A DNA stretch of 64,000 nucleotides from Obrimoposthia wandeli. Taxonomy: Eukaryota. This document shows, piece after piece, positions 29,296 through 64,000 of the stretch. The position numbers and the translations under genes were made by a program. Positions within the stretch are counted from its first letter, which is position 1, and each line of letters begins with the position of its first letter. The DNA lies in NCBI GenBank assembly GCA_977020255.1, contig CDROCS010000206.1, positions 1 to 64,000 on the forward strand, read 5' to 3'. The notes under the pieces are model-generated. The model was not told the DNA's origin, made no database searches, and saw only the letters and a program-made list of their open reading frames with translations.

Positions 29296-29382
29296 TGTAT
29301 AACTGAAATAATATTCTTTGAATAGTTCTTCTGTTTCTTCATTAAAAATATCCTGTTTGACAACGATTTCAATAGTACAGAT

Positions 29383-29866: not shown

Positions 29867-29886
29867 AACAATGTTAATCGTTAATA

Positions 29887-30270
29887 ATGTCTCTATTTGA
29901 TGTGTATAGTACAACTCAAACAGGTGGTGAACTACCTTACTTTGTGGGAAAACAATATGGTTCAGGTTGGTTGAAAGTTTTGGAGCGAATTGCGTTTCCT
30001 ATTCTATCACGTTTAGGACGAATTGGTGCAAAAACACTTACAAATGTAGTAATGAACGATAAACCAATTTTAAGACAACTAAAATCTAATGCAATGAGTG
30101 AAGTACCAGGTTTGTTGCCTGAAGCAACAAAAGCTGCTACTCAACTAATGACTGCAATAAAGAAAAGTCGAAAACGACCAGCACAAATTCCTGTTGAAAT
30201 GAAAGAAGAAGTACAGAAAGGTAGTGGTAGTATAAACAAACGTAGAAAAATAGGAACCATATTTGAGTAA
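29887..30270 (+). CDS. Polinton-2 PZ-like conserved small protein
   Basis: QTGGELPYFVGKQYGSGWLKVLERIAFP; homologous to 54505 and 35588. Confidence 0.8.
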   Translation: MSLFDVYSTTQTGGELPYFVGKQYGSGWLKVLERIAFPILSRLGRIGAKTLTNVVMNDKPILRQLKSNAMSEVPGLLPEATKAATQLMTAIKKSRKRPAQIPVEMKEEVQKGSGSINKRRKIGTIFE

Positions 30271-30273
30271 GAA

Positions 30274-31513
30274 ATGGCATGTGCAAAATCTGAACTGTGT
30301 TTATTTGATCGTCCACTACCTCAAATTGCTATAGAAAATGAATGTTTTGAGAATATTTACCCGGTTAATAATATTACCGGAAGTAATATTAATACAATCG
30401 AGTTTAATATCCATTTGAGTGAAACAGAATATTTAGATTTGAATGATTCTCTATTATATTTGAAAATAAAGTTTTAAAAAATAATGGAACAAACAGTTAT
30501 ATTGACATGGTGGAAGCAGATAAATTTATACCAACAAATTTCTTTTTCCATAGACTATTTAAAGATGTGCAAATTCACCTGAATAATACTAGTATTGAAG
30601 GAGAAAATGGTAATTATGCTCACAAGGCTTTGATTGAATGTATGCTTAATTATAGCAAAGATACGAAAGTGGTTCATTAGATGGAATTGGTTATGATAGT
30701 AATGAGAATGTACGAAAAGGGTGGATTGAAAAATCTAGTGATTTTGAGTTGTGCAGTTCAATTCGATCGGATTTTCTTGAACAACCCAAATATATGCTCC
30801 CCGGTATGAATGTCAGTATAAAATTGATTATTTCCAATGCAAACATGACACTAAAAACAGGTACAACTCATTTTAGAATAAAATTTTTAGATACTAAAAT
30901 GAAAGTTAGACTTGTACGAGTTGAACCATCAGTTTTGATCGCTCATAATGTTGGTTTGAAAACTCAAAATGCGGTTTATCCATATAGACGTGGAAAAGTG
31001 GTACATTATTCACTACCTAAAGGCTCTACAACATTTTATAAATCACCTATTTTTGATGATGAGCAATTACCGAAATTTGTTTTGATTACATTTCAACATA
31101 ATCTTAAAATTGACGGGTCTAGTGAAACAGACACTTCAGAATTTGATCATTGTAATGTCAGTTCAATTTCCCTTAGTAGAAACACTGATTTTGTTGAAAC
31201 GTACACTGCAAACTTTGAAAAAGATGAATACATGTTTGCGTATATTCAATCACTGGTTAGAAACATGGGATTATTGGATAAGAATATAAACATAGATATA
31301 AAATCTGAAGATTTTAAGGAACGTTACCCAATTTTTAAATTCGTATTGGACCCTGACTTTGATATAAATCAACATCAATTACCGAGACAAGGTAATCTAA
31401 GACTTGACGTAAAGTTTCTCAAAGGATTGGCACAGCCGTCAAACATTATAATTTACGGTGTTTTCGATACTGAAATTCAAGTAACTAAAGGCAAACGTGC
31501 AATTGTTGGATGA
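30274..31513 (+). pseudogene. Polinton-2 major capsid protein (double jelly-roll), frameshifted
   Basis: KSELCLFDRPLPQ N-terminal motif, IRSDFLEQPKYMLPG, QNAVYP, LPKFVLI and GNLRLDVKF; frameshifts near 30475 and 30680. Confidence 0.92.
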
Positions 31514-31584
31514 AGTAAGTGTTTATTGATCTTAATAATAATTGATGTAGTTCTAAACAGGTTAATACTGCGGGAATTGAATTA

Positions 31585-31887
31585 TTGGAACATAAATTCA
31601 AAGGAGTGTTTCCTATGGATAAAATACCAACTCTAAAACCTGGCAGATATGTTGTAAATACTCATACAAGTAATTTAACTGGTGAACACTGGATTGCGCT
31701 ATTCGTGAGACGTGATAGTGTACACGTATTCGATCCTATAGGAATTTATTATCCATCAGCACTCATCAGACATGTGGAAACTCAAGGGAAACGTCATGTA
31801 TTCTATAATAAAACTCGTATGCAAAACCCACTAACTACTAATTGTGGTCCTTTATGTCTTTTATGGTTGTTTCATCAAGTTTCTTAA
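31585..31887 (+). CDS. Polinton-2 adenain-like cysteine protease
   Basis: VNTHTSNLTGEHWIA (His), VFDP (Asp), MQNPLTTNCG (Gln/Cys). Confidence 0.9.
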   Translation: MEHKFKGVFPMDKIPTLKPGRYVVNTHTSNLTGEHWIALFVRRDSVHVFDPIGIYYPSALIRHVETQGKRHVFYNKTRMQNPLTTNCGPLCLLWLFHQVS

Positions 31888-32119
31888 TACATTTTAAGAT
31901 TTTAAACGACTTATTTTATAAAAGTTAGATTTAGATTTTTTTTTTCAATTTTTCTTACATTTTTAGAATCTGATATTTATTTAGAAATATAAAATATTTA
32001 AACTTATAATTTGATAATTTAGAATCGTTAGAATTTTACAAAACGATTCTAAATAATTTAAAAAATTTTTACACTTGCAAATAAATTTGTTATTTCCAAA
32101 GACATGAAAATAATAGCAA

Positions 32120-32229
32120 ACAATACCATCAGCTTTACCTCTAAAGTTGCTTTAAAATGTTTTGACGATAAAAGGAAATGGGTTAGTAAGAATAAAAGCC
32201 TTGTTTACGGTCATTTTAATTTAACTTAA
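32120..32229 (+). pseudogene. Polinton-2 pPolB C-terminal remnant
   Basis: YHQLY (fs) SKVALKCFDDKRKWVSKNKSLVYGH matches NHQLYT..KTALSSSDDKRYWIEKNRSRAYG at the end of Polinton-1 pPolB. Confidence 0.75.
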
Positions 32230-32688
32230 TAATTTTTAAATAAGATATATAGTTTTGTTATTGTTGTTATTGTTATTTTAATATCATCATCATTTGTACA
32301 CACACTCATTCACTTGTATATATTAATACAACTTTTATGTTTAATCGCTTTATTTATTATATAAGATTATTTTGATTAGTTGACCAATTATATTGAAGTT
32401 AGGTTTTTATGTAATCGAAACACTTTAGTTTTAAAATCATTTCATCATTATGACTCTAAGTACTTTAGACATGTTATGTGCTCTTCAGATCAACCTTAAA
32501 AAAACATTTTTAAACTATATACATCTCAATATTTTTCATTATATTGTGCTCCAGAACATTTCGAATTAAGGATAATGGAACTTTACTAATATCATCAACG
32601 TAAGATTTTTATTTTTAAAAATATTTAATGTACATTTAAAAGTTATGGGAGATATTCAATACTACTATCATCATGAGACGCCGAGTTG

Positions 32689-33222
32689 TAATCATATGAA
32701 TAAATGATTAATTGATTTTATTATTATTTAAAGGTTAACTATAAACAAAAGTAATATATATATAATCTTTGCCAAAGGTGCTGTGCGGTCTAGCAGGGCT
32801 CCCCTCTTAGGAGGCTCTGCAAGGGAGACTTTGGCCGCTTAAAATTTACTTAATATACTTTTGTTTTAAACGACAAGATATTTAGCGCGATATTTGAAAA
32901 TGGTCTTGAAATCACGCTTTCAACGTCAAAATAGTTTTGCAGTAAAGGTACCTATTACCGTTGGCGTAGTATGCGTGATTTGTCAAGTCTCAAAATCCTG
33001 CATACAACACCAGACCTGACTTGGAGTTGTAGGAAAATATTTGAGTCATTTTGAGTCATTTTAAGCCAATTTGAACAATTTTTAGACATTTTAACGACAT
33101 TCTGTCTAAAAAATGACTATATATAGACATTTTAAGCCACTATAGTGTTGGGACTAAATCAAAGGAACCTAGCCTCCCCGGGGGTAGATTTCTTTGGTTT
33201 AGTACCGACACTACATACTACT
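32689..33222. repeat. Right TIR of Polinton-2
   Basis: Reverse complement of 26970-27572. Confidence 0.95.
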
Positions 33223-45037: not shown

Positions 45038-45969
45038 AGTAGGTAGAAAGATGGAGTCTAAGCCACTTGACCCCCACTGTGTGCGCACACCAAGTTAAAG
45101 GGTGTCACACCATAAGGGTGTCACACCATAAGGGTATATGTTGCCTCACCATAGGGGTGTCTTGCCACACCATAAGGGTCTGGCTCAGAAAGGTTATGAA
45201 GGTTTGAAGGTATGGTCGTGATCGTCTATGGTCGGCCAACATACCCAAGGGGTTGTGGTCATCCATAGATGAAAGGGTCGGGGTCAGTTTTGACTTGAAG
45301 GTTTGAAGGTATGGTCGTGACGGTCTATGGTCGGCCAACATACCCAAGGGGTTGTGGTCGTCCATAGATGAAAGGGTCGGACTCAGTTTTGACTTGAAAC
45401 TTTGAAGGTATAATTAAGGTCAACTATGGTTGGTCATCACATCTAAAGGGTCATGGTCGTCCATAGGTGAAAGGGTCGGGCTAAAAACAAAGTCAAGTTT
45501 AAAATATCAAGGTTTTAGTACATGGTTGTAATCATCTTTAGAAGGTGAATTCAGTCATAAAGTATGACTGTCCATAAATCAAAGGGTCGAGATATAGACC
45601 AAATCAAGTTTTAAATGTCAAGGTTTGAATACATGGTTGTAATCATCTTTAGAAGACGAATTCATCCATATAGGTATGGTCGTCCATAGATGAAGGGTTA
45701 AAAAAAAGTTGGAATTTCATAGTTTCAAGTACATGGTTGTATTCGTCAACATATTACGAGTTTATTCATGTAAAAATTTTATGGTCGTTCACAAGTTAAG
45801 GGTTAGATTTGGCATAAATTAAGAAATTATATAGTATTCAATCAATTATTCTATGTGAAAGTTCACTCTTAAAAGTTAAGGAATGTATTACGTAATCATA
45901 CACACACTATTCTATGTGAAAATTTAGATCAAAGTTTGTTTTTTTTCCTAGGCTTATGCATCTAAAGAA
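45038..45969. repeat. Left TIR of Polinton-1 (~930 bp, with internal ~16-bp, ~99-bp and ~79-bp tandem units)
   Basis: Inverted match to 57065-57545 plus 63410-64000. Confidence 0.95.
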
Positions 45970-46044
45970 TTATGTTAAAATTTATATTAAATCAAAAATA
46001 AATAAGAAAGAAGTCAGAGAATAATACAAAATTAAACACATTTA

Positions 46045-49000
46045 TTATGTAATTTCATAATTTCCATAAGCGCGGCTTCTATTTTTCTCGATCCAATAGC
46101 GTTTGTCATCTGATGAGCTGAGAGCAGTCTTTTGTGTTATGATTGTGTATAGTTGATGATTTATTGTTCCAAAATTCTTTTGTGGTATAGTATATGCATT
46201 ACCGTTTTCATACACGTCTAAAGATGTTTGATGTACAACCGTTGATCCCTTAAGATTTACTCCTTTTGCTTTATTATTTTCAAAGTCATCTTCAAACTTA
46301 AGTGAATAACATTTACAAAGTAAGAAAATCCATTCTTTATACATTCTTCCTTCCGATTCATTTTTAAATAAACCTATTTTACTATTAAATTTATTAGAAT
46401 ATAATGGATCATTCACATTATAATTTGACGTATCTAATAATCCATCTGCAATCATTTTTGGTAACAACTGTTTTCTTAAATTAACGTTTTTACATTCCAA
46501 AAAGAATGAGTCGGTATCACTGGCAACTATATTAATTGAACAATTGAATAAATTACGATATATTTGCAAATCATGATACTGAAGAGTATACATTCGTAAT
46601 TTGCTAAGGTCTAGTACAGCTTGGCCTATATAATTTGGTCGATCGAGACAAATAAAGTCTTTTCTTAATAAAACAGCTATTAAATTATCATGAATTTCAA
46701 TTGTTCGTTGAAACATAGGTTTGCTAGTATATGTAATTAATTTTGTAGAACTAGTGCAGATGCGAAGATTCAACCGTTTCTTAACATTTTCAACGGTCTT
46801 TCCATACAAACTAACATTTTTAAGTTTATAAAAATCTTTGTCACATTTATTCGTTGCTTGTGATCTCATTTATGAATTATATTCTATATATTCTGCGAAT
46901 ATCTTAGCCTGAGAGAATTTTACTGCTCGATGAATAATTGTTACCACTGCTCCTAAACTAACATACATCTGCAATAATCTCCAATGAATAACATAATGAC
47001 TTTTTGGCGAATGCGTCATTAAAAGTTTTTCAACTTTTTTACCAGGTGAACATTTCTTTTCTGGAGCTATAGGAAGATCATCTAAAAAGTCATGAAGGTT
47101 TTCTGGTATTACCAAGTCTACTTCCATAACATAACCATATTCAATATGTTCCATGTTCACATTTTTTATTTCATGCAATATTTCGTTTAATTTTATATCA
47201 TCAAGAATCCATTCAAAATCTCCTTTTGGTAAAGGTTGATTAAGAGCCCATCCATATAAATTATTAACATCTATATATAAAAGACTTGTTTCTTCATCAG
47301 CGACTACATGATGCTTATTGACAAATGTCATTCCTCCTCGTATATCCGAAGAAATCATGTTGTACGTTTCAGGATCCTGCATCAGTTCAACCTTATGTTT
47401 TAACATTTTTAGAGCACTTGCCCAACTCAACCCAGGAATGCTAAAAAAGTTAAGTGGTTCTAAACCATCTTCACTGAGAGCTTTTCTTCTGAATGTTTGA
47501 AACACGTCAGCTAATAAATATACGTCAGTCTTTAAGTAAACTAACATATAATTCAACATATTTCTACAATTGGTTATTTTCCAAACATCTTGTGCTTTTT
47601 GATATTCAGTGTCTGTGATTTTATCATTCCATTTTACTGGTAAACTTAACTTATTCTGGAGGACATTTAATGATGTAGCAAAATCATATGGGAATATTCC
47701 TTTGCCATCAATAAGTTTAGATGGAAAAACTGATCTTGTTAATGGAATAGTTGGTAATTTACCGGCTAAATTTTCTAAAGATGATTGCAAAAATTGCAAA
47801 GAATCTATAAATTTCAGAGTTATTTTACCTAATCTTACAATCATGGCTTGAAACTTTTCCGTTGATTGTGGTATAATATTTATATCCCAGTCAGTAAATT
47901 TAATCAATGCATGTTTTAAAATATGATGTAAATCATAACCTCTGAGATTATGAAACACAATAGGTAAAGTTGGACGAAGTTTTCTTGATAAATTACATTC
48001 ATTGCATGCAGGACCTAGATACTTGCCAGTAAAGTGATCATGATCTTTAACATATTTTTCAGATGATTCGTGACATAAATAACATTCATCGGCATTGCTA
48101 AATGTATGAATCTCTGCATTTGTTAAGGGAATCATTACGTTTTTAAGAGCATCTAAATACCATGGCAAAACCTTTTCTTTAGCCAAGTTCTCTATTGACT
48201 GAAGAAATTTAACTATGCAGTCATCACCAACATTATGTTGATACTGGGTTTCAATTTCATCTGTACTCATAAATAACATACCAGATGCGACAGGCATATG
48301 CTTTTGATGATAACTCTCATCTGGTACTAATACAGATTCAAAATCAGCGTAAACGACATATTTCGGTGATATAGTTTTTGACCAATCGTTGAATTTAACG
48401 TACTTATTCTTAGGCATAGTATACATTGTAGTGCTTTCTTGATTATAGTCACATAAAACTTTATGCTTTTCTAATGACAAATCGGTTTTGAAACCATGTA
48501 AACACTTTTCACACCATTTTCTGCTAATTCTAGTCGTTCCAGTTCGAATATTTAATAGCCGGTTAAGACAACTTATTCCTATATAATGAAACCGTTCCTT
48601 GGATTCTAGTAACAATAAATTAACTATAGTTCCTTCCTTCATTTTTAATTTGTATGCAACATCGATATAAGGATTCTTGATAACATCAGTTTTTGATTCT
48701 TTTTCACTTACCTCGTTGAATATGAATACATTTATTATTATACCAGGATTTTGCCGTTCAAATTTTGATATATTTGATATTTTCATAGGCATGTCTTCGG
48801 AATTATATACAAAATCATTTAAAAATCTTTCATAGTTGCTTGGTCTATTTCTATGTGATTCTATTTCATTATATTTAAGTATTGACAATATTGCATAAAT
48901 AAAGCAAAGATTATCAGAGTTTAGAATATTTATGACTGCTTTAGATTTTGTAAGAGAATTTGGTGATTTAATATATGAATGACCTGACAATGCACAAATT

Positions 49001-49737
49001 TGACTATATTTAGTAGCAATAAATGCATATTCAAGTATATTCATCAATTTCCAACCACTACCTTTTTCTGAATATTCTTCAACTTTATTTTCCATTGTAT
49101 CTTCCATTTCTGAAATTATAGCATGTGAAAAAATCATTGCTTGATGCGAAGCATACCATTCTTTAGTTTCTCCATCATTCTTTTCAAATCTCATTCTAAT
49201 GATGTATTGTATCTTTGCATTTCCCATTAATTGCACTATTCTTTCTAGTTCGTTTAATAATGAAACTGGAACCTTAAGACTTACAAGATTGAGATGATCT
49301 ACTTTCATGGATATCATTGAATAACTATTTTCTAACGATGTTTTAGTCTGTATATTGTCATTTATTTTACGTTTTCGTGACGGAGTAGGAGCTGAAATTA
49401 CTATGTTTGATGGTTCATTAATTATATCAGTTCTTTTGCTTAAAGCCGGTACTTTAAATAATGTTTTCTTACTATCATTTTTATATTCTTTTAAATGACT
49501 AACATGTCGACTATAAAATAAGTTGTAATCAACATTTTCAGTGCTTAAACATTGTGGACATATGAAATAATTTATCCTTTTGTATGAATAACGATAATAA
49601 TTTTTCATGATATCATGACAGACTTGAGGATTAAAATGTGTTTCCGATGAACAATAATTTGAATAAGTTTTACATATACTCATCTGATGATATGATTGGT
49701 ATTGAGACATTGATTGATTTGATTGGACTTGAGACAT
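46045..49737 (-). CDS. polB: Protein-primed family B DNA polymerase (pPolB), one in-frame TAA at 46870-46872
   Basis: EKGSGWKL and NSDNLCF in the N-terminal region; exonuclease YADFES and FHNLRGYDLHHI; endonuclease VII-like insert CYLC..DHDHFTGKYLGPACNECNL; polymerase motifs YIDVNNLYG, KLKNVSLYGK and SDTDS. The 955-aa and 274-aa ORFs are in the same frame, separated by one stop. Confidence 0.97.
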
Positions 49738-49806
49738 TTTGTTCTAAAATAAAAAAAAAAATATATATATATATATAAATACAATAATTTAATTATTTTA
49801 CTTACA

Positions 49807-50337
49807 ATGTTAACAAATATTAATTATAAAGGAATTTGCTTAGATGATGTATCCAAATTAAAATTTCGAACACGACCAGAACAATACGTTTATAAAGCCA
49901 AAGATTATACAATACTTATTTTTAGAAATAAGAAATGCAGGATTATGGGATGTAAGGTACCTATTAAAAATATTTCTTACCCTTTAAGAATAAATATACT
50001 TGGTATTCAATCAATTACGGTATGTGAAAATTTAGATCAAAGTATCAATCTATTTAAATTATGGAATGTGTTACGTAATACATGTTCATTTGACCCTGAG
50101 GTTTTCCCAGGCTTAAGATTAAATATTTTCAATCCATTGTGTGTAAATATTTTAGGTCTTAGAAATTTAGATTTTCAAAATCAAGTTAACGATATCATGA
50201 CATACATTAAAAAAAATTATATAAATACGAAACAATTTCTAATTAAATCATTCAATTTTAAATGTCTTATAAAGCCGTTCAAAAGTATTACGAGTATGAT
50301 ATGTTCTTCTTGGCATCTGCATGGATTCATCCAATGA
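49807..50337 (+). CDS. TATA-box-binding-protein-like (TBP fold) ORF inside Polinton-1
   Basis: TILIFRNKKCRIMGCK vs TBP TALIFSSGKMVCTGAK; IQSITVCENLDQSINLFKL vs IQNMVGSCDVKFPIRLEGL; SFDPEVFPGLRL vs SYEPELFPGLIY. The last strand (LIFxSGKVV) is missing; the tail after ~aa 135 may be read-through. Confidence 0.8.
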   Translation: MLTNINYKGICLDDVSKLKFRTRPEQYVYKAKDYTILIFRNKKCRIMGCKVPIKNISYPLRINILGIQSITVCENLDQSINLFKLWNVLRNTCSFDPEVFPGLRLNIFNPLCVNILGLRNLDFQNQVNDIMTYIKKNYINTKQFLIKSFNFKCLIKPFKSITSMICSSWHLHGFIQ

Positions 50338-50648
50338 CTATGCCAGTGACATTATCGAAAACTTCGTACAATTACCGAGTCTCTGATTTTGACGACAAAG
50401 ACATTCAACAATTCAATGAAGTCGTCAAATATTTGAAAATTGACATTGAACTTGAGAATGAGGGTATATTTATGCGCGGAGATAAGTGCAAATTTTATGA
50501 TTGTTCCGGAACAAAGATTTCGGATATTCAAGAAGATGGAAGAAGTTGGATGCTCGAAATAAAAATTCTCGGATATAAAATAAATAAAAAGAATGAAACA
50601 ACTCTCATCTGGAGGATTCACACAGCGACCGAATATTTTGATGTTTAA
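50262..50648 (+). CDS. Polinton-1 gene X, unknown function (128 aa)
   Basis: PVTLSKTSYNY..SD....DIQQFN and LEIKILGYKI...LIWRI align with the gene X copies at 27560-29295 and 61428-61955. Confidence 0.75.
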   Translation: MSYKAVQKYYEYDMFFLASAWIHPMTMPVTLSKTSYNYRVSDFDDKDIQQFNEVVKYLKIDIELENEGIFMRGDKCKFYDCSGTKISDIQEDGRSWMLEIKILGYKINKKNETTLIWRIHTATEYFDV

Positions 50649-50728
50649 TAAATATTTAATAAAATGTTGTATTGTTATAAACATTTACTTATTCTGATAT
50701 ATTTATTTTATATTAATATTTATATATA

Positions 50729-51358
50729 ATGTTATTAACAAACAATTCGACTTTTCAAGTAGTAGGACCAAGTGGTAGTGGAAAAACTTTATTTGTTTGT
50801 AAATTATTAAATTCAAAAATGTTTAAAAATAAATTTAATAAAATATATTGGCATCAAGTTGGTGACGGAGAAGCCGGTTTAACAAACCAAGAATTTAATA
50901 AAATAAAAAACATTAAGATTATTAACGGTTTTGATGAAAATTGGACGACAAGACTCGTAAAAGGTGATGTAATTGTTATTGATGACTTATATCAAGAGGC
51001 TAACAAAGAATCTGATTTTAATGATTTATTTACAAAAATTGCAAGACATAGAGAAGTTACTGTAATTTTTATAACCCAAAATTTATTTCATCAAGGAGGA
51101 AATCATCGTACTCGTAATCTTAATGTACATTATTTGATTTTATTCAAAAATCCTAGAGATCAAACAGTGATAGATTTTATTGCTCGTCAAGCATTTCCTC
51201 ATAACAAGAGTTATTTAATTGATGCGTTTCATGATGCTACATCTTTACCTCATGGTTATTTATTTTTAAATTTTACTCAATCATGTCCTGATGATTTAAG
51301 AATTGTTACTGATATATTTAACCGTAATGGTATTACAGTCTATAAACAAAATAAATAA
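50729..51358 (+). CDS. A32/FtsK-like genome packaging ATPase
   Basis: Walker A VVGPSGSGKT, Walker B IVIDD, then ARH..V..IFITQNLF and RTRNLNVHYLILFKNPRD; intact 209 aa. Confidence 0.95.
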   Translation: MLLTNNSTFQVVGPSGSGKTLFVCKLLNSKMFKNKFNKIYWHQVGDGEAGLTNQEFNKIKNIKIINGFDENWTTRLVKGDVIVIDDLYQEANKESDFNDLFTKIARHREVTVIFITQNLFHQGGNHRTRNLNVHYLILFKNPRDQTVIDFIARQAFPHNKSYLIDAFHDATSLPHGYLFLNFTQSCPDDLRIVTDIFNRNGITVYKQNK

Positions 51359-51378
51359 TAATAATGTTTTAAAATAAA

Positions 51379-51789
51379 ATGAATTTTAAAAAGAGTATTC
51401 TTAAACATAGTAAAAGGACAGATAAAGATGAAGTTAAAAAATTAATAAACACTGTATTATATGATCGTAATAATATTGAATTTAAAAAAAGTTTACCTTA
51501 TTTTAAAACCTTAATTGACGTATCAAAAACGAATAAAATGAAAATGTTGAAATCATTTCCAATTTATGTAGTTGATGATTTAATAAAAATTTTAAATAAA
51601 ATAATTTATGGTAAAATTAAACCTGATCCTAATATTTTAAAATATAAAAATTCATTAATAAATTTAGCAAATTCACGTGGTAAAATTAATAAAAGAAACA
51701 TTATTTACAATCAAAATGGCGGATTCCTATTGGCCATACTGCCCGCTATAGCATCAGTAATAGCTGGTCTTATAACTTCAAGAAGTTAG
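51379..51789 (+). CDS. Conserved small Polinton protein with a C-terminal Q-x-GG-F-L amphipathic helix (PW-type)
   Basis: Basic 136-aa ORF ending NQNGGFLLAILPAIASVIAGLIT, next to the ATPase; the xGG motif resembles adenain cleavage sites (inference). Confidence 0.7.
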   Translation: MNFKKSILKHSKRTDKDEVKKLINTVLYDRNNIEFKKSLPYFKTLIDVSKTNKMKMLKSFPIYVVDDLIKILNKIIYGKIKPDPNILKYKNSLINLANSRGKINKRNIIYNQNGGFLLAILPAIASVIAGLITSRS

Positions 51790-51815
51790 AAGTTTAAAAA
51801 AAAAAAATTATAAAA

Positions 51816-52131
51816 TTATATAAGAGTCTTACAAAGTAACATTAATAAGAAACTTACATTAAATGTTGAAGTAGATTCTCCCGATGTACCAGGAATCATT
51901 GTTGTTGATGCTGATGTAGGAATCATTACCGCGGCTGCTAGTCTAAAAACAATATTAAAATTAATTTTAAAAAGAAAAAAAAAATTACTTTTTATGTTTC
52001 TTACTCTGCATATGAGCATCCATTGAATATTTATTATTCATTGGTCCTGTTTGACATATTTGGCAATTAAATATAAATATAAATCATAATTAAAAAATAT
52101 ATATATATATATAATAAACTCACGTATTCAT
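51816..52131 (-). CDS. Spliced micro-gene encoding a U1/matrin-type C2H2 zinc finger
   Basis: Exons 52131-52124 (ATGAATAC|gtgagt), 52066-51989, 51942-51858 and 51827-51816 splice in frame to MNTCQICQTGPMNNKYSMDAHMQSKKHKKLAAAVMIPTSASTTMIPGTSGESTSTFNTLI*. Introns are 57, 46 and 30 nt; the intron 1 acceptor reads AA instead of AG. Confidence 0.65.
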
Positions 52132-52429
52132 TTTGAGTCTTGATTTATTTAAATTAAAGAAAAATAACAAAATAGTAAATTATATATCCTATTATGTAAT
52201 TTCAATTATTGATAATAATATAATTATCTCAATTGTTACAATTGAATTGTGCCTATTTAATTATGATAGTTGCCTTAATAACGAAAATTATAATAATATT
52301 AAATAATTACATTCTTTCGTTTTATACAAACATATAAACAGATTAAAATATATTTAACTTTTATAATAATGGGGATAAACAATACAAAGTTGTCTAACAT
52401 ATTTATAATTTTTAATTCTTCATGCTGCA

Positions 52430-53454
52430 ATGGAAAAGATTTGGAACAATCCAGAAGATCCAGAGGGTATACAGGGTTAGAAAAATTGACAAAAAGAGTC
52501 AAACAATCAAAAACAAACACACAAAAATGGTTAAGAAATGAATTATCATATAGTTTGAATAAACCTTTAAGACGTAAATTTCCTACTAGATCATATAAAA
52601 CTAATGGTATTAATTCCTTATGACAGATGGATTTAATGGAAATGATACCTTATTCTTCAGTAAATAACGGATTCAAGTATATTTTAACTTGTATTGATGT
52701 ATTTAGTCGTTTTGCAAGGGCAGTTGGTATTAAATCAAAATCGGGTATTGATTTATTACATGCAATAGAATCTTTAATTGTTGATGATGTACCAGTAAAT
52801 ATCCAAACCGATGAAGGTAAAGAATTTTTTAATTCACATGTTAAGAAATTATTTAAAACTGAAAATATCAATCATTATTCAGTATATTCTCAATATAAAG
52901 CTGCAGTAGTTGAAAGATTTAATAGAACGTTAAGAGAACGGTTAAAGAAATATTTTACTAAACAAGGTAATAAGAAATGGGTGAATGTATTACCAAAAAT
53001 TATTTATGCTTATAATAATTCTAAACATAGAGGTTTAGATGGTTTAAAACCTGTAGATGTAAATAATAAAAATGAATTTGATATTTTGTTGAAACAAAAT
53101 CCAAAAGAAAAGAAAGTTAAATCTAAATATAAAATTGATGATTATGTTCGAATATCAAAAATAAGTACAAGTCCATTTATTAAAAATTTTAATCAAAATT
53201 GGAGTGATGAGGTTTTTCAAATTCATGATATTAATTATAAACAAAATCCAATAATGTATATTTTAAAAGATATTGATAACGTCATCATCAAAGGAAAATT
53301 TTATAAACAAGAGTTACAATTAATTGATAAACCTAAACTATATCGAATACAAGAAATTTTAGAAACTAAAGGTCGTGGTAAGAATAAACAATATTACGTA
53401 AACTGGCACGGATACTCTGAACCTTCTTGGATATTTGCTTCTCAAATTGAATAA
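52430..53454 (+). CDS. Retroviral-like (DDE) integrase with a C-terminal chromodomain-like tail; one frameshift (~52460) and one TGA (52621-52623)
   Basis: MEKIWNNPEDP(fs)GYTG..., L*QMDL (normally LWQxDL), LTCIDVFSR, QTDEGKEF, VVERFNRTL and YYVNWHGYSEPSWI. Confidence 0.95.
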
Positions 53455-54467
53455 TGTCAAAATATATTATTTTACCTAGTAATAGTTGTCCAAGTACTCA
53501 ACCTAACAATACAGCCAATCAATTTACTGTAGATTGGGAAAACTCTCTAAATTTAGATGGTGAATGGGAGGTTGCCTTGACTGAATTTGTATTTAATTAT
53601 ACTCCTTTAACAATACAAACTAATTCAAAAATACTTTATAAAACAGAAAAGATAGAAATGAAAACTTTCGATGTATCTTTTGCAATTTTAAATGGATTAA
53701 TTTTTAATAATTTAAATAATGTTTTCAATTTCAAAATTACAAAGAATCAAAAATTAGAAATAAGTACAATTAACAGTATTCATCGAATGTTGTTAAAATT
53801 CGAATCTTTAGAAAAATCAAAAATTATAGGTTTTAATGAAATACAAAAAATTTCTAGTCATGTTATAACAAGTGATGAAATTGTTGACATAAATAAAAAT
53901 ATTCATGCTAAAATGAGAATTACAATTTATTCTTTAGCTGAATATGAATACGAAATAAAATTTAATCAAAATTATTTGATACAAGATAGTTCTTCATTAT
54001 GTAATATTATAGCCAGTAAATGTAATGCGATTTTTAAAAGCTGTAATATAGATTCAAACGGATTATTTGATATTTTAATAAAGAAAAATGTAAAATCAGT
54101 TTTATTTGACGAAAAACTTGCATCTTTATTAGGTTTAAATAATGTTTTCTTTGAGAAACGAATTAAAGGTTTTCAAGAACCAACACTTTCTAGCTCATAT
54201 AATCAAATGTATATTTATACTAGTTTAACAGATTCTGTCTTAGTAGGATCTGATTATGTTCCACTGTTAAAGTCTATTTGGTTAAAATCATTAAAATATC
54301 GATATGGAGATGTAGTAAATGTTAAAATTGATAATCCAATGTACTTGAAAATGAGAGATTCAAGTATTAATAGAATCGAGGTAAATATACGTGATGATTC
54401 TGGTAATTTAATTCCATTTTCATATGGAGCAAAAACTAGTTTAACTCTTCATTTACGTAAAGTATAA
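53454..54467 (+). CDS. Minor capsid (penton-like, single jelly-roll) protein
   Basis: ILPSNS..QPNNTANQFTV..ENSLNLDGEWEVALTE at the N-terminus and MYIYTSL..PLLKSI..IEVNIRDDSG.LIPF at the C-terminus; intact 337 aa. Confidence 0.9.
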   Translation: MSKYIILPSNSCPSTQPNNTANQFTVDWENSLNLDGEWEVALTEFVFNYTPLTIQTNSKILYKTEKIEMKTFDVSFAILNGLIFNNLNNVFNFKITKNQKLEISTINSIHRMLLKFESLEKSKIIGFNEIQKISSHVITSDEIVDINKNIHAKMRITIYSLAEYEYEIKFNQNYLIQDSSSLCNIIASKCNAIFKSCNIDSNGLFDILIKKNVKSVLFDEKLASLLGLNNVFFEKRIKGFQEPTLSSSYNQMYIYTSLTDSVLVGSDYVPLLKSIWLKSLKYRYGDVVNVKIDNPMYLKMRDSSINRIEVNIRDDSGNLIPFSYGAKTSLTLHLRKV

Positions 54468-54504
54468 ACAATATAAATATATTTAAAATATAAAAATATA
54501 AAAA

Positions 54505-54905
54505 ATGAATACATCAATTATAAAATTTTATAGCAAAAGTCAACAGGGCGGTGAATTTCCCTATTTCATTGGTAAGCAATATGGATCTGGTTGGTTTCAA
54601 ACTATTTCTAGATTAGCTATTCCATTTATTAAAAAAGCTGGTTTATCAGCAGCTACAAGTGCTGCCAATGCAATTGGCGAAACGGTAGGAACTGCGTTAA
54701 CAAATCCAAAAACTTAATTTCATCTCTCAAAGAAAATACAATCAAAGAAGTCAAAACTTTGATTCCAAAATTAAAAAATAATGCTGTTGAGAGTTTAAAT
54801 AAAGTCGCAAATTGTGTTGAACAAAATGGAAAGGGTCTTAAACGTAAAAGAAATCATTTAAATAGTATAAACAAACGTCTTAAAGGTACTATTTTCCAAA
54901 AATGA
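54505..54905 (+). CDS. PZ-like conserved protein, one frameshift at ~54715
   Basis: QQGGEFPYFIGKQYGSGWFQTISRLAIP; the shifted frame continues to a TGA overlapping the capsid ATG. Confidence 0.8.
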
Positions 54906-56121
54906 CTAGTATAAAATCTGAATTGTGTATTTTCGATAGACCACTACCTCAAGTAGTGATTGAAAATTCAAGTTTTGAAGAAATATTTCCAATCAATTCA
55001 ATTACTGGTGGAAATTTAAATGACATAGAATTTAATATTCATGCATCTGAAGAAGATTATCTGGATTTGAATGATACTTTGTTAAATATTAAATTAAAAG
55101 TTGTAAATGAAGATGGTACTGATTTAATGAAAGATAACGATGTAACTCCAGAGAATTACATGTTTCAAACTTTGTTTAGAGATGTTATTCCAACACTTAA
55201 TAATGTAAAGGTTGAAGGAGGAAATGGAACGTATACTCATAAGGCTATATTCGATACTCTTTTGAATTTTAGTAGTGATACCAAGTATACTAACCTTGAA
55301 TGTTCCGGGTATGATGATGATGCAAAAAAACGTAAACAATGGATTAGTGAATCTAAAATATTTTCATTGTGTAATTCAATTAGATTAGATTTCTTTGATC
55401 AACCAAAATATTTGATTCCAGGGATTAATGTTCATTTGAGATTTATGAGAAATCAGCATAATCTTTCGCTCTATTCAGAAACTTCAAAACCAATTATTCA
55501 AATTCTAGATGCTAGATTGTATGTTAGAAGAGTAAAAGTTGATTCTTCAGTAATGATTGGACATCAGTTAGGTTTGTGAAGTCAGAATGCAGTTTACCCA
55601 ATTAGAAAAACTCAGTTAGTAACATATTCAATTCCTCAGGGTTCTTTGGAACTTAATAAAGATCAAATATTCGGAGACTATCGTTTACCCAAGTTCATTT
55701 TGATTGCTTTCAAAGATACACCTCAGGGTGGTAAGGAATACAAAGTTAAATCTTCTACGTTCAATACATTTAATGTTTCAACAATATCATTAGCTAGAAA
55801 TACAGATTATCGAGAAACTTATAATTTAGATAATAACAATTTTTCATTAGCATATATGCAGTCAATTATTCGAAATATGAATATTTTAGATAAAAACTTG
55901 AATAATGGTATCAGATTTTCTGATTTTAAATCAGGAAGTTCGATTTTCACTTTTATATTAGCACCAGATTTTGATATAAACACTACTCAAGTGCCTAAAA
56001 CTGGTAATTTAAGACTTGAAATTAGATTTAATTCTCCTTTGGTTGTTCCAACAATGTTTGGATTTACGGAATATTTGATTCCGAAATTCAGATTACGAAA
56101 AATAAAACTGTGATTGTATGA
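54902..56121 (+). CDS. Major capsid protein (double jelly-roll); one TGA (55577-55579) and one -1 frameshift (~56053)
   Basis: KSELCIFDRPLPQ, IRLDFFDQPKYLIPG, QNAVYP, LPKFILI, GNLRLEIRF, and restored end VWIYGIFDSEIQITKNKTVIV*. Confidence 0.95.
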
Positions 56122-56194
56122 AGTAAGCTTATTGTATATTATATTCTTTATTTAAATTAGTACTTTAGAAATTTATAAATCCGGAAAAATATTT

Positions 56195-56494
56195 TTGAAT
56201 AACAAATTTAATGGAGTATATTCATTGGATAAAATTCCATCATTAAAACCCGGAGGCTACATTATCAATACTCATACTTCAAATTTACCAGGCGAACATT
56301 GGATAGCAATATTTGTTGACAGATTCGAGATTCGAGTGTTTGATCCTTTTGGATTCTATTGTCCTTCAAAGTTGGTGTCTACACTTGAAAAAGAAAACAT
56401 TCCACTCTACTATAATCGAGTTAAATGTCAGAATCCATTAACTAAAAACTGCGGACCTCTGAGTCTTTTATGGTTGAAACTTCAACACAAATAA
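56195..56494 (+). CDS. Adenain-like cysteine protease
   Basis: INTHTSNLPGEHWIA, VFDP, CQNPLTKNCG; the start codon is uncertain (TTG in the track). Confidence 0.92.
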   Translation: MNNKFNGVYSLDKIPSLKPGGYIINTHTSNLPGEHWIAIFVDRFEIRVFDPFGFYCPSKLVSTLEKENIPLYYNRVKCQNPLTKNCGPLSLLWLKLQHK

Positions 56495-56545
56495 TTTTAA
56501 GTATAAACAAATATATCAATATAGTATTTCATTTTATTTTTTCAA

Positions 56546-56998
56546 ATGGCTTTTATTGATTTAGAATGTTTTATTGATAATAATGGAGAATATATTCCAA
56601 AGGAATTATGTATAATGTATGTGAATGATATGACTTGTCCATTTCATTACGTGTTTAAAAATCAAATACCATGGAGTAGTTTATCATTTACAGTTAAAAG
56701 AAAAAATCTATATTTGATAAATCATCATCATCAGTTATCCTGGTTTGAAGGTGAAAGCTCTGATATTCATATTGATGATGTTGAAACAATATTCTATGTT
56801 ATGGATTCTATTGATGGAAAGAAAATTAATTTAGTGAAACGAATGTTTCCAAATTTGAGAATTGTGAATTATAATAAAAGTTTCAAAAATTTAAAGAAAA
56901 TGCCAAAAAATATTCGATGTCCGTTTAGAAAACACGGAAAACATTCGGCTTATTTGAAATGTTTTTCTCTATGTATTGATTATGTAAATTGTATATAA
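56546..56998 (+). CDS. Conserved Polinton accessory ORF with a DEDD-exonuclease-like N-terminal D-x-E motif
   Basis: MAFIDLECF..PKELC and C-terminal CPFRKH..YLKC; homologue MAFIDFEYF..IKDLC/CPFREH..YLKC at 38237-38621. The nuclease assignment is inference. Confidence 0.6.
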   Translation: MAFIDLECFIDNNGEYIPKELCIMYVNDMTCPFHYVFKNQIPWSSLSFTVKRKNLYLINHHHQLSWFEGESSDIHIDDVETIFYVMDSIDGKKINLVKRMFPNLRIVNYNKSFKNLKKMPKNIRCPFRKHGKHSAYLKCFSLCIDYVNCI

Positions 56999-57064
56999 AT
57001 ATATTTATTAAGGATATTTTATTTTAATATATAATTTATGTTATTTAAATAAATTTTACCATAT

Positions 57065-57545
57065 TTCTTTAGATGCATAAGCCTAGGAAAAAAAAACTTT
57101 GATCTAAATTTTCACATAGAATAGTGTGTGTGTATGATTACGTAATACATTCCTTAACTGATAAGAGTGAACTTAAGCTTAAATTTTCACATAGAATAGT
57201 GTGTGTGTTATTAAAAACCACATTCCTTAACTGATAAGAAGGAACTTTAGCCTAAATTTTCACATAGAATAGTGTGTGTATGATTACGTCATACATTCCT
57301 TAACTGATAAGAGTGAACTTTCACATATAATAATTGTTTGAATACTATATAATTTCTTAATTTATGCCAAATCTGACCCTTAACTTGTGGACGACCATAA
57401 AATTTTTACATGAATAAACTCGTAATATGTTGACGAATACAACCATGTACTTGAAACTATGAAATTCCAACTTTTTTTAACCCTTCATCTATGGACGACC
57501 ATACCTATATGGATGAATTTGACTTCTAAAGATGATTACAACCAT
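57065..57545. repeat. Right TIR of Polinton-1, inner part
   Basis: Reverse complement of ~45633-45969 with extra ~79-bp units; ends at TSD AACCAT (57540-57545). Confidence 0.95.
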
Positions 57546-57879
57546 AGTAGTGGGATGTGAGGTCTCAAGCACAAAGTAGGTCAAGGTCAACCCCCCCCCT
57601 GCTGAAGTGATTTTTTTTTATGTGAGGTCTCAAGCACAAAGTAGGTCAAGGTCAAACCCCCCTGTTTTGTTTTACTGAAGTGATTTTTGAATTTTTGTTT
57701 TACTGAAGTTATTTTTTGAAATTTGAATTTTTGTTTTACTAAACTGATTTTTGAAATTTGAATTTTTGATTATTTTTTTTTTAAAAACTTGTGTTTTTAA
57801 AATAATTTGTAGGTTATTATTTCTCATGTGAATTTTATAATATTCATATAGGTCAACAAATTATTTAATATTTATTTTC

Positions 57880-58040
57880 GAAAAAGTTTAAACTTTATTT
57901 TTCAAAAAGTTGTAATTTTATTTTTCGAAAAGTTGTAATTTCATTTTTCAAAAAGTTGTAATTTCATTTTTCGAAAAGTTGTAATTTCATTTTTCGAAAA
58001 GTTGTAATTTCATTTTTCGAAAAGTTGAATTTTTCAAAAA
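57880..58040. repeat. ~19-bp tandem array (tttttcgaaaagttgtaat-like) in the nested element
   Basis: About 7-8 near-identical consecutive units. Confidence 0.9.
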
Positions 58041-58799
58041 GTTGATATTGAAATTAATTTTTCATGTTTGAAGGTGCAAGTTTGCTTTACATTATTTGAA
58101 AAAAGTATAGTAAGTGGATGTACATCCTATTTAACTCCAATAAGTTATATAAGTTAAATAATAGATATTGTTTGTATTTTCTGGAGTTTAAACTCACGGA
58201 GTTTACGAACTCCCGGAAGACTAACCTTCCGTTGATCGCATACACTTGATAACAAGGAAGATCGTATTTCACTCTCCAGCATGACTAAATGCCGAGGAAG
58301 CCAAGGAAAAATAAACAATATCTTATATATTACTTGAATAACTTACTGAAGTCTACATTGTAAATATAACTGAACCCTCTTAATTCTAATCCTAAAATAA
58401 TATATGTATGGAATGTAGGATGGGAAAAGGGATGTGAGGGTAAATCAAAAAGAAAATAGAGAACCAGAGATTAACAGAGAACCAGCCCTCTTAGGGGTTA
58501 TCACATATGGGGCCCCTTGAAAAAATAATAGATAGGGAAATAGGGAATGCTGATCTATCTCCTGAAGATCTATCTCCCGATGAAATCAGTCCCGATGAAT
58601 TCACTCTCGATGAAGTCACTTCTGATGACGCTGCCAGGAAATGATAATTATTCCCAAGAAGTCACTCCTTTGTAAAAAATATACTCCCCTAACCCAATAA
58701 TTGATCCCAAAAAATCGATCCTTTGAGAGAAATATGCGTCCCTGACCCCAATTTCCCAATAATTGTTGAGTATGAACACACTAAAGATGATAAAGTTAC

Positions 58800-58950
58800 T
58801 CCCAATAAATGTTAATTATTCCCAATGAATGTTAATTATTCCCAATAAATGTTAATTATTCCCAAGAAATGATAATTATTCCCAATAAATGTTAATTGTT
58901 CCCAAAAAGTAATAAGTGTTCCCAATAAATGTTAATTATTCCCAAGAAGG
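58800..58950. repeat. 20-bp tandem array (cccaataaatgttaattatt) in the nested element
   Basis: About 7 consecutive units at 20-bp spacing from 58801. Confidence 0.9.
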
Positions 58951-61427
58951 CACTCCTTTATGAAAAATATGTTCCCCTAACCCTCAACCCAAATAAATAA
59001 TTAACATACCTAAAAATATATCCATAATTCTTCTATAGCAGAGCTACCTGAAGTGGGCATATCACTTCTCTTGCTCGTAGATGCTAAACTAAATCTTCTA
59101 TAAATAGTTTGCAGGCTACCTTTTGAATATCTGAACAATTATATATATATATATTTCTGTACCTACCTCGTCTGCCTTCCATTCATCTTCGCAGATAATT
59201 TCTTCTGTATTTCATCATAGTGAACAATTTGAGGCTAAAGATATATATTACAAAATTATCAATAAAAAATATACCTTTTTAGAATATTCCTTTTTCCATA
59301 AATATATTTTAATAAAAGCGGCATAGAATATGTTGATGCTATTAAATTAAAACAATTCTTTATGCAATTTAGACCATGAAAATATTTAAAATTACTAAAG
59401 AAATGATAAATATTTTTTGGAATTACTTATTAATTTTCATTCAAGTTTTACTTAAGTTTAATTAATATGTAAATATCTATGTATGTAAACTAATAATTAA
59501 TATAGGTTCTCCAGTAAATAAGGAGTACATAGGGAGAATTTACGTGGTATTGGGTAGTTAATAATTAATGATTATTGGTGTACACAGTCTATTTTGTTAT
59601 TCATTTAGGGAAAATTTACATGGTCTTAGGAAATAAATGTTCAAAGTATAATGATATTAATTTTAATAATATTTTCATGGTCTAAGGAAATAAATGTTCT
59701 AAATTTGATATTTTGATGTATACAGTATAATTTGTTATTCATTTATGGTAAATTTACATGGTCTCTGAATTTCAATGTTCAATAATTTACTAATTTGGTG
59801 TACACAGAGTAATTTGATGGTCATTTACGTGGTCTAAGGAAATAAATGTTCAATAACTTGCTATTATTGGTGTACGCAGACTATTTTTATATTAATTTGG
59901 TGTACATAGAGTATTATGAGATTAATTTGGTATATATTTACATGGTCTTTGGGTTCAATGTTGGACCATTCTATAATATTTGTGTACTCAGAGTATTAAT
60001 TTGGGAAATATTACACGGTCTTAGGAAAATTATCGATAGTGTACGCCGATAATTTACGTGGTCTTTAGATAATTAATGTCGCATAAGAAGAGAATATTGA
60101 TGTACGTACACTATTATGGAAATTTTCTATGGTTTTAGGAAATTATTGAAATTATGGATATTTACTGAATGTTTAGGAAATTATTGATATTATGGATATT
60201 TTCTATGGTTTTAGGAAATTATTGATGTACGCAGACTATTATGATATAATTTAGGGATATTTACTGAATGTTTAGGAAATTTTTGGTGTATACTAACTAT
60301 TATGAGAATAATATTAATTAAGTTACGGTGTCTTTCAGATAGTTAATATTGGTGTACAGACTATCATGAAATTAAGTTTCAATATTTTTCAAACAGTTAA
60401 TAACAATTAATTTACGATGTCTTTCAGATAGTTAGCAATATTAGTGTGGAGACTTTAATGAAATTATTTTACAATGTCTTTCAGATAGTTAATAATTTGG
60501 AAATATTGGTGTACAGACTATCATATTGACTTATATCCAGTTGACTTTGAACGAATATAGTTTAAATAATATCAATTAAGCAAAGTGGAACGGTATTCTA
60601 TGCATTCACAGTACAGTGAGAATTCTGTTACCGTTTCTAAAGCTAGTCTTAGAGCCAGAGGCCGAAGGTAAAATAGAGCTAGTCAGAACCTGATGGTGAA
60701 GCCATATAATAATAATAGGGAACACTCACATCAATATCTTAACTCGAAGCTTCATAAAATATAAGGCAGAATAATAAATAATTAGAGAATATCAATGTAC
60801 GCTGAATAATTTAGGTGATTAATATTGAATAATTAAGGAATATTGGTGTACAGACAAAGTTATGCTGTCTTTCAGACATATTTAATAATTCAGGAATACG
60901 TTGGTGTACGTAGACTAATATGATATTCATAGAGGTTCTCAGGTAATTTACGGATATCGATGTACGTTGACTAATAAGTATAGTAATTTTGATTCAATTA
61001 GGGGAAATATCATTTATAGAGCAACTTTATGGGATATTTTATAAAAACTGATAGGTCGAATTCCCAGATTTGACCGTGAAAACTCATCTCTTAATACTTT
61101 TTGGATATCGATGTTTTATTAGTATTTTAGGGTGACGGGGGAATATATGTTAGTGTTAATGGGAAATATAAGAAACCTTATCATCATCCTATTGAGACAA
61201 AGTATAATGGTTTCAATCGTCGAGTTGCTCTGTCGAGTTGCTCGAAAGCAATTGAAGAAGCAGAGTTTGATATTTTTCGTCATTGTTCATATTTCCCCGA
61301 ACCTGTTTGAATATTCACTTGAATATACCCTCATCTGATTGGTCAATCACTTTAAATCCCTAAATTAATAAAGACCATCTATCCCTGAAGCATTAAAAAT
61401 ATGTGGTAGAATAGAAATTTTATTATT

Positions 61428-61955
61428 TTACGACATAATAGTTCCTTCTGTAAATTTCCAAATTGGTTTTAAACATCCATCTCGTTTTATCTTGTATCCT
61501 TGAATTGAAATTGAGATATAGCATTTTTCTTGGTTAGCTTGATAGTATTCAGTAAAAATCCTTTCATCTGCTCGCATCATCATTGAATTAGTATGGATCT
61601 TATACTCAGTACCTGATTCATGTAAGATATGATTGAGTTGTTCAATATCTTGTTCACTAATATCATTGATTATATAATCGAATTTTGACTTTGATAACTT
61701 GACAGAATCGGATAATAGATATATTACAGGACTCTTGAGAAAATTCATCTCCCATCCCAAATATTGATAACTTGGTTGATATTCGGGTTTCTCTAGTTCC
61801 TTCAATACAATTTCTGGTTTCAAGTTAATATTCGATACATCGGGAAATAGTTGTTTGCTAATATTCTTCTTGTTTCTTGCTAATGTTGGAGCAGCTTTTT
61901 CAGGGATGTTCTTGGAGATTTTAATATTTGTCATCGTTGATATATGACTAAACAT
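61428..61955 (-). CDS. Gene X homologue (175 aa) in the nested element
   Basis: Intact ORF; MNFLKSPV..VKLSKSKFDYII and ISIQGYKIKRDGCLKPIWKFTEG match Polinton-2 gene X more closely than Polinton-1 gene X. Confidence 0.85.
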   Translation of the reverse strand: MFSHISTMTNIKISKNIPEKAAPTLARNKKNISKQLFPDVSNINLKPEIVLKELEKPEYQPSYQYLGWEMNFLKSPVIYLLSDSVKLSKSKFDYIINDISEQDIEQLNHILHESGTEYKIHTNSMMMRADERIFTEYYQANQEKCYISISIQGYKIKRDGCLKPIWKFTEGTIMS

Positions 61956-62859
61956 CTTTAGTTTATATCAAACCTAGTATCTGATTGGTTATCTCACTAC
62001 ATTTATGGGTCCTGGATGAGCTCTGGTGTCAGAGACTAGTGTCGGAGAAGAGATTGATTCCAGTGAAGAGGATTCTGTTGAATAAGAAATATCTTCCCCC
62101 AAACCCTAATTATCTCTAACATATTTCCATACTATGTTCCCCCAAACCCTAATTCAATCATCAAATGTATTCATATTTGTTAAAATTATTCATATAATCG
62201 TGGAAATTATTCATATAATCGTCAAAATGATTCATATTTGTCAAAATACTAATATAATTTATTACCCATGTTAACCCAACCTTAATTTCTCCATATAATC
62301 ATGAAAAGTATGAATATTGTATAGCTGAAATGACCGTGGAATGACCCACTTTCAATAACTTATTTATTGATCCGTATATTGAAAAGAATAATAGATTTCA
62401 TGTTAGTCAAAGTTGATCACTCCTTTATTACAAATGACTCTAAGTTATTTCCATAATATACTCACCTCTTTCCCCTAATCTCAATAATTTAGTACCGTAA
62501 CCCGATTTTTTCTCTATAATATGTTTCCCTAACCCTAATCCTAATCCTCAATTTCCTCTATCATATTAACCCTAACTCAGAAAATATATGTTTTTAAAAG
62601 CATTCAATCATATCACTTCTATAGAATTCAATGATGTCAGTATACGGAAACCTGTCCGAGAACACATTGATAGAATAATCAACAAAGACAGGAAGCCTAA
62701 AGTCCATCAAAAAGAGAATCTTCGGCGTATAGACACCAGTTCCGGACTCGAGATTCATAGACTCATAGGTCCAATCCAAATTCAGTCTTGGAGCTTGTTA
62801 TTGAGTCAAAATAACTTCATCGAAGAAAGAACAATCTGAAGATCAGCAAGTCACTGCGG

Positions 62860-63110
62860 GGAATTAATATGGATTAACATATTTTGATTTTCAATCGAAT
62901 GATTGAATTCTGAAATTAATATGGATTAACATATTTGAATTTTAATCGAGTGATTGAGTCCTGTAATTAATAAAGAATAACATATTTTGATTAATATTGA
63001 GTGATTGAGTTCTAGAATTAATATGGATTAACATATTTTGACTAAAGTTGAGTTATTGAGTTCTGGATTTAATAAAGATTAACACATTTTGATTAATATC
63101 AAGTGATTGA
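62860..63110. repeat. ~50-bp subterminal tandem array in the nested element
   Basis: attaatatggattaacatattttga...gtgattgagttct repeated about 5 times. Confidence 0.85.
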
Positions 63111-63409
63111 GTTCTAGTGTTATAGTATGTTTTGAAATTTGCGGGCATAAAAATTGATGTGTTTAAACAAAAACATCTAATTTTAGAGTAAAATCCGCCT
63201 AAAACAGAAGTATTATAGTATAAAGTGACATAAATATAAATTTAACCCTCAAAAATCATGTGTACTATAACAAAATTTGACCTACTTTTCACATTGACCT
63301 TAGAAAAATTAAATATTATAATATGTATTTAAAATTTCCGCCCAAAAAAAAAAAAAATCTCGGTTTTCGCTAGGGGGGGGGTGGCCGGAACTGGACACAT
63401 CTATCTACT

Positions 63410-64000
63410 AACCATGTATTCAAACTTTGACATTTAAAACTTGATTTGGTCTATATCCCGACCCCTTCATATATGACCGACCATACTTTATGACTGAATT
63501 CACATTCTAAAGATGATTCCAACCATGTACTAAAACCTTGATATTTTAAACTTGACTTTGTTTTTAGCCCGACCCTTTCACCTTAGGACGACCACAACCC
63601 TTTAGATGTGATGGCCAACCATAGTTGACCTTAATTATACCTTCAAAGTTTCAAGTCAAAACTGACCTTGACCCTTTGAATTATGGACGTCCATGACCCT
63701 TTAGATGTGTTGGTCAACCATAGTTGACCTTAATTATACCTTCAAAGTTTCAAGTCAAAACTGAGTCCGACCCTTTGACCTATGGACGACCACAACCCTT
63801 TAGATGTGATGGCCAACCATAGTTGACCTTAATTATACCTTCAAAGTTTCAAGTCAAAACTGAGTCCGACCCTTTGATTTATGGACGACCACAACCCCTT
63901 GGGTATGTTGGCCGACCATAGGCGGTCATGACCATACCTTCAAACCTTCATAACCTTTCTGAGCCAGACCCTTATGGTGTGGCAAGACACCCCTATGGTG
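63410..64000. repeat. Right TIR of Polinton-1, outer part (runs off the window)
   Basis: Reverse complement of ~45147-45638, with more ~99-bp units than the left TIR. Confidence 0.95.

Follow-up and report, generated by a model that had tools for sequence, protein, structure and literature searches.

The stretch of DNA analysed here (the window) comprises the first 64,000 nucleotides of a contig (CDROCS010000206.1; C206 in coordinates) from the genome assembly of Obrimoposthia wandeli. At positions 57546-63409 it contains a 5,864-bp element that starts with AGTAG, ends with CTACT and is flanked on both sides by the 6-bp target site duplication (TSD) AACCAT. The element interrupts the right terminal inverted repeat (TIR) of a larger Polinton, Polinton-1, and one AACCAT is present at the matching place of the left TIR of this host (45633-45638); the integration signature and its empty site are thus exactly as described in an earlier reading of this DNA from sequence alone (the sequence-only reading). 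Because its two ends are derived from two different Polinton families, Polinton-A and family B, it is referred to below as the A-B element. The features of the locus are as follows.

57540-57545 (+): left TSD, AACCAT, a single copy of which is found at the empty site (45633-45638)
57546-63409: entire A-B chimeric element, 5,864 bp
57546-57947 (+): left end, a Polinton-A TIR (88% over about 400 bp), followed by a 23-bp array up to 58032
58060-59566: non-coding segment with 15- and 20-bp arrays
59567-62848: X module, with 30-, 38-, 92- and 21-bp arrays and gene X
61428-61955 (-): gene X, 175 amino acids (aa), intact in the window copy
62849-63116: 51-bp array, beginning at the common junction of the family (62848/62849)
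63117-63409 (-): right end, a TIR of the polB-only family B (88-93%)
63410-63415 (+): right TSD, AACCAT
45038-64000: host Polinton-1, with its right end at C206:64169 and the TSD ATCCCA

Gene X is the only open reading frame of at least 100 aa in the element and is accompanied by tandem arrays, as the sequence-only reading had stated. The match between the two ends is confined to AGTAGnnnGATGTG, corresponding to some 14 bases in imperfect agreement. The left and right ends of the window copy and of 19 others (20 copies checked) showed no inverted repeat; the lack of a long TIR first seen in the window is common to these copies. The terminal 30-nt duplex of the A-B element has a value of -10 kcal/mol, compared with -29 to -39 kcal/mol for TIR-bearing elements (no shuffle control). 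The window copy contains no protein-primed polB. In 7 of the 20 copies, a 3' remnant of the Polinton-A polB wholly or partly takes the place of the segment at 58060-59566, and no tblastn match to the RVE integrase or to morphogenesis genes was obtained in any of the 20. The family therefore has the AG...CT termini and 6-bp TSDs (17 exact) of a Polinton and lacks the polB, the RVE integrase and morphogenesis genes, and the long TIR (100-1500 bp) of an autonomous one.

Searches of the same genome with the two ends of the element yielded 669 candidates for the left end and 1,569 for the right end. Polinton-A is a 16-kb element with A ends on both sides that carries polB, a protease gene, both capsid genes, an integrase gene and an ATPase gene. 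Its copies at C1057 and C2743 have A TIRs and exact TSDs, and the genes are split in these copies. Polinton-A also encodes a dual-specificity phosphatase (L171:2558-3349). Family B is a high-copy family that contains a full-length polB region and no other core gene between symmetric B TIRs with exact TSDs. Its members are 6.7-7.3 kb long or form palindromes of 12-13 kb with polB in both arms (for example C2097:42298-55750 (L093/L094), L178, L190 and L191/L254). The 5' region of the family B polB gave 961 candidates, the best 40 of which showed 99-100% identity. A further A/B mosaic was observed at C2281, where a B end and the B polB are followed by the protease-capsid-integrase-ATPase block of Polinton-A (93-95%). 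A potential trans partner with a matching end was thus found for the A end (C1057 and C2743, with split genes), and no integrase-bearing B parent was found among 20 loci. The autonomous parent with both end types that the sequence-only reading had suggested looking for was absent from 18 polB-A loci and 20 polB-B loci.

The X module is absent from Polinton-A itself but matches, at approximately 97-99%, the arms of palindromic A-A derivatives. These are about 14 kb long and consist of inverted arms of about 5 kb, each containing gene X, and a central cargo, either a reverse transcriptase gene (RVT_1) or a BIR+RING inhibitor-of-apoptosis (IAP) gene (C851:271180-285230, C629:65957-80251, C305, C4282 and C473). 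Twenty-one inverted pairs of X were present among the 146 matches listed. In the palindromic A-A copies at C242, C4282, C2824, C31 and C402, the two flanks likewise form an inverted pair, which may reflect snap-back of a larger unit or an assembly effect. Because the left end comes from Polinton-A, the right end from family B and the middle from the A-A arms, the A-B element combines at least three sources.

Used as a query, the internal junction returned 1,086 candidates, the best 39 of which were scored, and 30 loci were examined together with the window (n = 31). The junction letters (62848/62849) are identical in 29 of these 31 loci, and both ends, A on the left and B on the right, are present in 23 loci. 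Among the 23, 17 are flanked by exact 6-bp TSDs (in two of the 17, one end is partly degenerate and was read by eye) and 3 by TSDs with one mismatch, all at different flanks; the remaining 3 are fused to a further element, and 2 of these composites have an exact outer TSD. The probability of a chance 6-bp TSD match is about 5e-4. The element has therefore been inserted as a unit at many independent sites without a recombinase of its own, as expected of a derivative mobilized in trans, and the sequence-only proposal of a helper-dependent multi-copy element with distinct 6-bp TSDs is borne out to this extent. Short-read contigs of one sample also span the junction, indicating that it is not an artefact of the present assembly alone, although the runs possibly represent the source sample rather than independent biology. 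The depth at the junction in these contigs was about one-fifth to one-quarter of that of gene X (contig depth is a poor measure). The interiors of the A-B copies are only about 1% apart, suggesting that the burst is young, and their terminal segments are 3-15% apart. Both variants of the B end occur in family B and in the A-B family, with either allele of X, which suggests continued exchange.

Other elements in this genome also combine ends of different types. Independent mismatched-end elements with exact TSDs were identified at C3326, C2289, C3802 and C4044, representing at least four further architectures. In that at C2289, a B left end is still nested inside, and such nesting is a plausible route to mismatched-end chimeras. 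A second type of A-B junction had three matches, of which those at C3326 and C2742 share a common flank and represent one insertion, and that at C180 is without recognisable ends. At C3802 and C1715, two elements are fused end to end with the loss of 3 terminal bases and a single outer TSD; such fusions under one TSD are expected of free linear ends, if such ends exist. The AGTAGnnnGATG core is also present in several more end families of the genome, and the occurrence of these architectures with exact TSDs suggests that ends with this core are interchangeable here. A single-copy 690-bp element at C457:355950-356639 has a B end on one side and, on the other, a cryptic end (about 7-9 matching bases), and is flanked by an exact TSD. 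It was rejected as a family of its own, its end motif having 28 matches versus 41 for the control.

Gene X shares 40% identity with a broken homologue in another Polinton of the window, Polinton-2 (residues 65-134, 70 residues), 41-43% with a homologue linked to the family B polB, 33% with the Polinton-A homologue and 26% with that of the host Polinton-1; X is thus closer to Polinton-2 than to its host, as had been noted from the sequence. Polinton-2 (26970-33222; 6.25 kb; TSD GGCTTT) retains remnants of capsid and protease genes without an integrase or a full polB, and it is interrupted near 27730-29095 by a zf-C2H2/BED transposase-like insertion. A profile search with gene X found 96 unnamed relatives; Pfam, a word-based homologue search, ESM Atlas and the PDB searched by sequence gave nothing useful. 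The structure model (mean predicted local distance difference test score of 83, mostly >90 in the core) has an OB fold, and OB-fold proteins dominate the structural comparison, all with Z<8. The top row is SilF, a metal-binding OB protein (Z 7.2, root-mean-square deviation (rmsd) 2.8, 74 residues aligned), and the longest alignment is with CP312R of African swine fever virus (Z 6.1, rmsd 3.7, 118 aligned), a protein that binds single-stranded DNA (ssDNA). The T7 gp2.5 protein (Z 5.7, rmsd 3.2, 101 aligned) and the ssDNA-binding protein (SSB) of Enc34 (Z 5.9, rmsd 3.1, 98 aligned) were also matched. SSBs were the top rows in a Foldseek search of the PDB (E>=0.2), and the two matches at E<=0.001 in a viral structure library are both uncharacterised proteins. 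The product of gene X is therefore likely to be an OB-fold SSB, as predicted from the model. X is intact in 7 of the 20 copies; 11 share a 7-bp deletion near codon 28, one has another deletion and one is without X. A shortened product might still start from the in-frame ATG at codon 70. The ratio of nonsynonymous to synonymous polymorphism (pN/pS; 46 copies or pieces) was 0.98 when calculated from singletons and 0.71 (p = 0.57, not significant) when calculated from shared variants, and the purifying selection that, according to the sequence-only reading, would support a satellite family was accordingly not detected. As 13 of the 20 copies have a broken X or none at all and pN/pS is near 1, X is not needed in cis.

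We consider it probable that the A-B element is a non-autonomous recombinant Polinton derivative, with a left end from Polinton-A and a right end from family B, that has been inserted as a unit at many sites, most likely by a Polinton integrase acting in trans and needing only the AGTAGnnnGATG core. As mismatched-end copies with distinct TSDs are found at many sites, short common ends suffice, and long matching TIRs are dispensable, for Polinton-type insertion, in agreement with the earlier suggestion that minimal ends are enough. Judging from the missing genes, mobilization would depend on a helper. The junction may have arisen once, when the arm of an A-A element recombined with a molecule that had a B end. 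The helper integrase would accept any two ends with the core, in the way that retroviral integrase tolerates ends that differ. Copying may occur on free linear DNA, from both ends, by the protein-primed polB of a helper; this phi29-like mode is proposed because the A-B ends cannot form a panhandle. The copies would go on swapping both their termini and their arms with those of the A and B pools, and gene X would be a passenger. Both the palindromes and the end-to-end fusions are compatible with replication of free molecules. Several points weigh against this interpretation. Only the best 40 or so candidates were scored per search, so that the counts are lower bounds biased toward close copies. 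One or both ends are missing at 8 of the 31 loci, and the divergence of the terminal segments is possibly inflated by mis-paired tandem units. The 20 polB-B loci sampled, 13 of which were extended, yielded no B-ended element that has integrase and capsid genes together with a TSD of its own, and replication, free DNA and the identity of the acting integrase are all inferred.

The same chimera might instead have spread by cut-and-paste, through integrase-mediated excision, reinsertion and repair of the donor gap, in the manner of a chimeric miniature inverted-repeat transposable element and with no extrachromosomal replication. The inability of the A-B ends to form a panhandle fits this explanation, and chimeric non-autonomous hAT families of Anolis amplify in this way (PMC3014272). 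However, the giant A-A and B-B palindromes, the end fusions and the end exchange are better, albeit indirectly, accommodated by strand-displacement replication, and we regard cut-and-paste as unlikely.

Another alternative, which extends the hyperparasite proposed in the sequence-only reading, is a dedicated satellite that targets Polintons, disables their replication origin and uses gene X for its own benefit. The family is indeed multi-copy and helper-dependent, the window copy lies inside a TIR and its X is intact; however, an independent lineage is not supported, since the ends are TIRs of Polinton-A and family B. Conversely, the origin of each end from a different long-TIR Polinton, which that reading had named as refuting a satellite family, applies to the ends themselves, yet the family is mobile and generates TSDs. 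Insertion sites lie in Polinton DNA for 4 of the 20 A-B copies versus 127 of 500 background tiles (Fisher p = 0.79), and inside a TIR for one of the 20. Single A ends (6/29) and single B ends (10/29) are not enriched in Polinton sequence either. For the background, 400-bp tiles were drawn from 20 stretches picked at random in large contigs, and one test was applied to both sets; as the library was limited to Polintons encountered in this analysis and the tiles are clustered, both fractions are rough lower bounds. There is therefore no target preference. Crippling of the host by the insertion is not supported either: it lies 760 bp inward of the Polinton-1 end and leaves the terminus intact. 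Polinton-1 is broken independently, with an in-frame stop in polB (46870-46872) and a split major capsid gene. It also encodes a TBP-like protein (49807-50337; Pfam TBP). Together with the decay of X, these results largely refute the hyperparasite explanation, which we consider very improbable.

The least credible explanation, that every A-B copy was formed separately, by rearrangement after insertion (nesting of A and B elements plus a deletion) or as an assembly chimera, and is not a mobile unit, draws on the abundance of both ends, the high Polinton content of the genome (about one-quarter) and the A-A palindromes with inverted flanks, which show that such rearrangements do occur, but it conflicts with the identical junction in 29 loci and its presence in short-read contigs, and the 17 sites with exact outer TSDs refute it for the majority of copies.

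Polintons (Mavericks) encode a protein-primed DNA polymerase (pPolB) and an RVE integrase and have TIRs of 100-1500 bp and TSDs of 5-8 bp (bioRxiv 10.1101/2023.08.22.554363; PMC8097293). The A-B family resembles them in its AG...CT ends, 6-bp TSDs and Polinton-derived ends and gene, but differs in lacking polB, integrase, ATPase, protease and capsid genes, in its minimal TIR and in having ends from two families. Its nearest precedent is the chimeric-ended, non-autonomous hAT elements hobo-N14/N15_AC of Anolis, inter-family recombinants whose 5' and 3' ends belong to different groups and which were likewise amplified in trans (PMC3014272). However, those elements use a cut-and-paste transposase and their TIR groups differ slightly, whereas the 300-400-bp TIRs of the A-B element are unrelated beyond the core and its system is thought to be self-synthesising. 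Among protein-primed replicons, phi29 is also linear, has few matching terminal bases (a 6-nt terminal repeat), is copied from both ends and uses an SSB (PMC4974454); being a phage with its own polymerase, it provides a mechanistic analogy only. The panhandle is a model for single-end initiation (PMC11886824). Polinton variants of butterflies, with gene-containing 2-kb TIRs and long interspersed nuclear element cargo, resemble the A-A derivatives in the duplication of genes in the arms, the reverse transcriptase cargo and the lack of polB, but have symmetric ends, and that account, as far as available, describes no mismatched-end family (bioRxiv 10.1101/2025.02.07.637071). Tlr1 and transpovirons are also reduced Polinton-derived elements, sometimes termed non-autonomous Polintons, but, unlike the A-B element, both have retained a helicase as well as symmetric inverted repeats (PMC5499653). 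The literature covered, which did not include the founding papers, contained neither a mismatched-end Polinton family nor a Polinton SSB, and absence from print is not established. To our knowledge, Polinton transposition has not been demonstrated experimentally. Because annotation pipelines detect Polintons by inverted repeats and core genes (PMC8097293; bioRxiv 10.1101/2023.08.22.554363), gene-less families with mismatched ends would be missed.

The A-B element is real, multi-copy and unusual, and it is a recombinant, not a hyperparasite. Twenty natural insertions define a minimal end of about 14 bases, providing a basis for a biochemical test of end recognition by the Polinton integrase and pPolB, and the predicted SSB gives a first likely function to a Polinton gene family that is conserved but as yet unnamed (96 relatives). 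The 127 tiles matching Polinton DNA or proteins are distributed over 17 of the 20 stretches, and about one-quarter of the 1.35-Gb genome appears to be Polinton-derived (an estimate from large contigs, a limited library and tiles that are not independent), a setting in which end swapping can be counted. More tentatively, and with some doubt, these elements may form a quasi-multipartite swarm of modular, defective-interfering Polintons. In such a swarm, AGTAGnnnGATG-core ends would serve as interchangeable origins and attachment sites; B replicons would provide the polymerase, X-bearing A-A and A-B elements an SSB, and Polinton-A the integrase and capsid, and the panhandle-less A-B element would be copied as free linear DNA from both ends. 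If true, this would mean that Polintons can do without a TIR panhandle, contrary to what is assumed.

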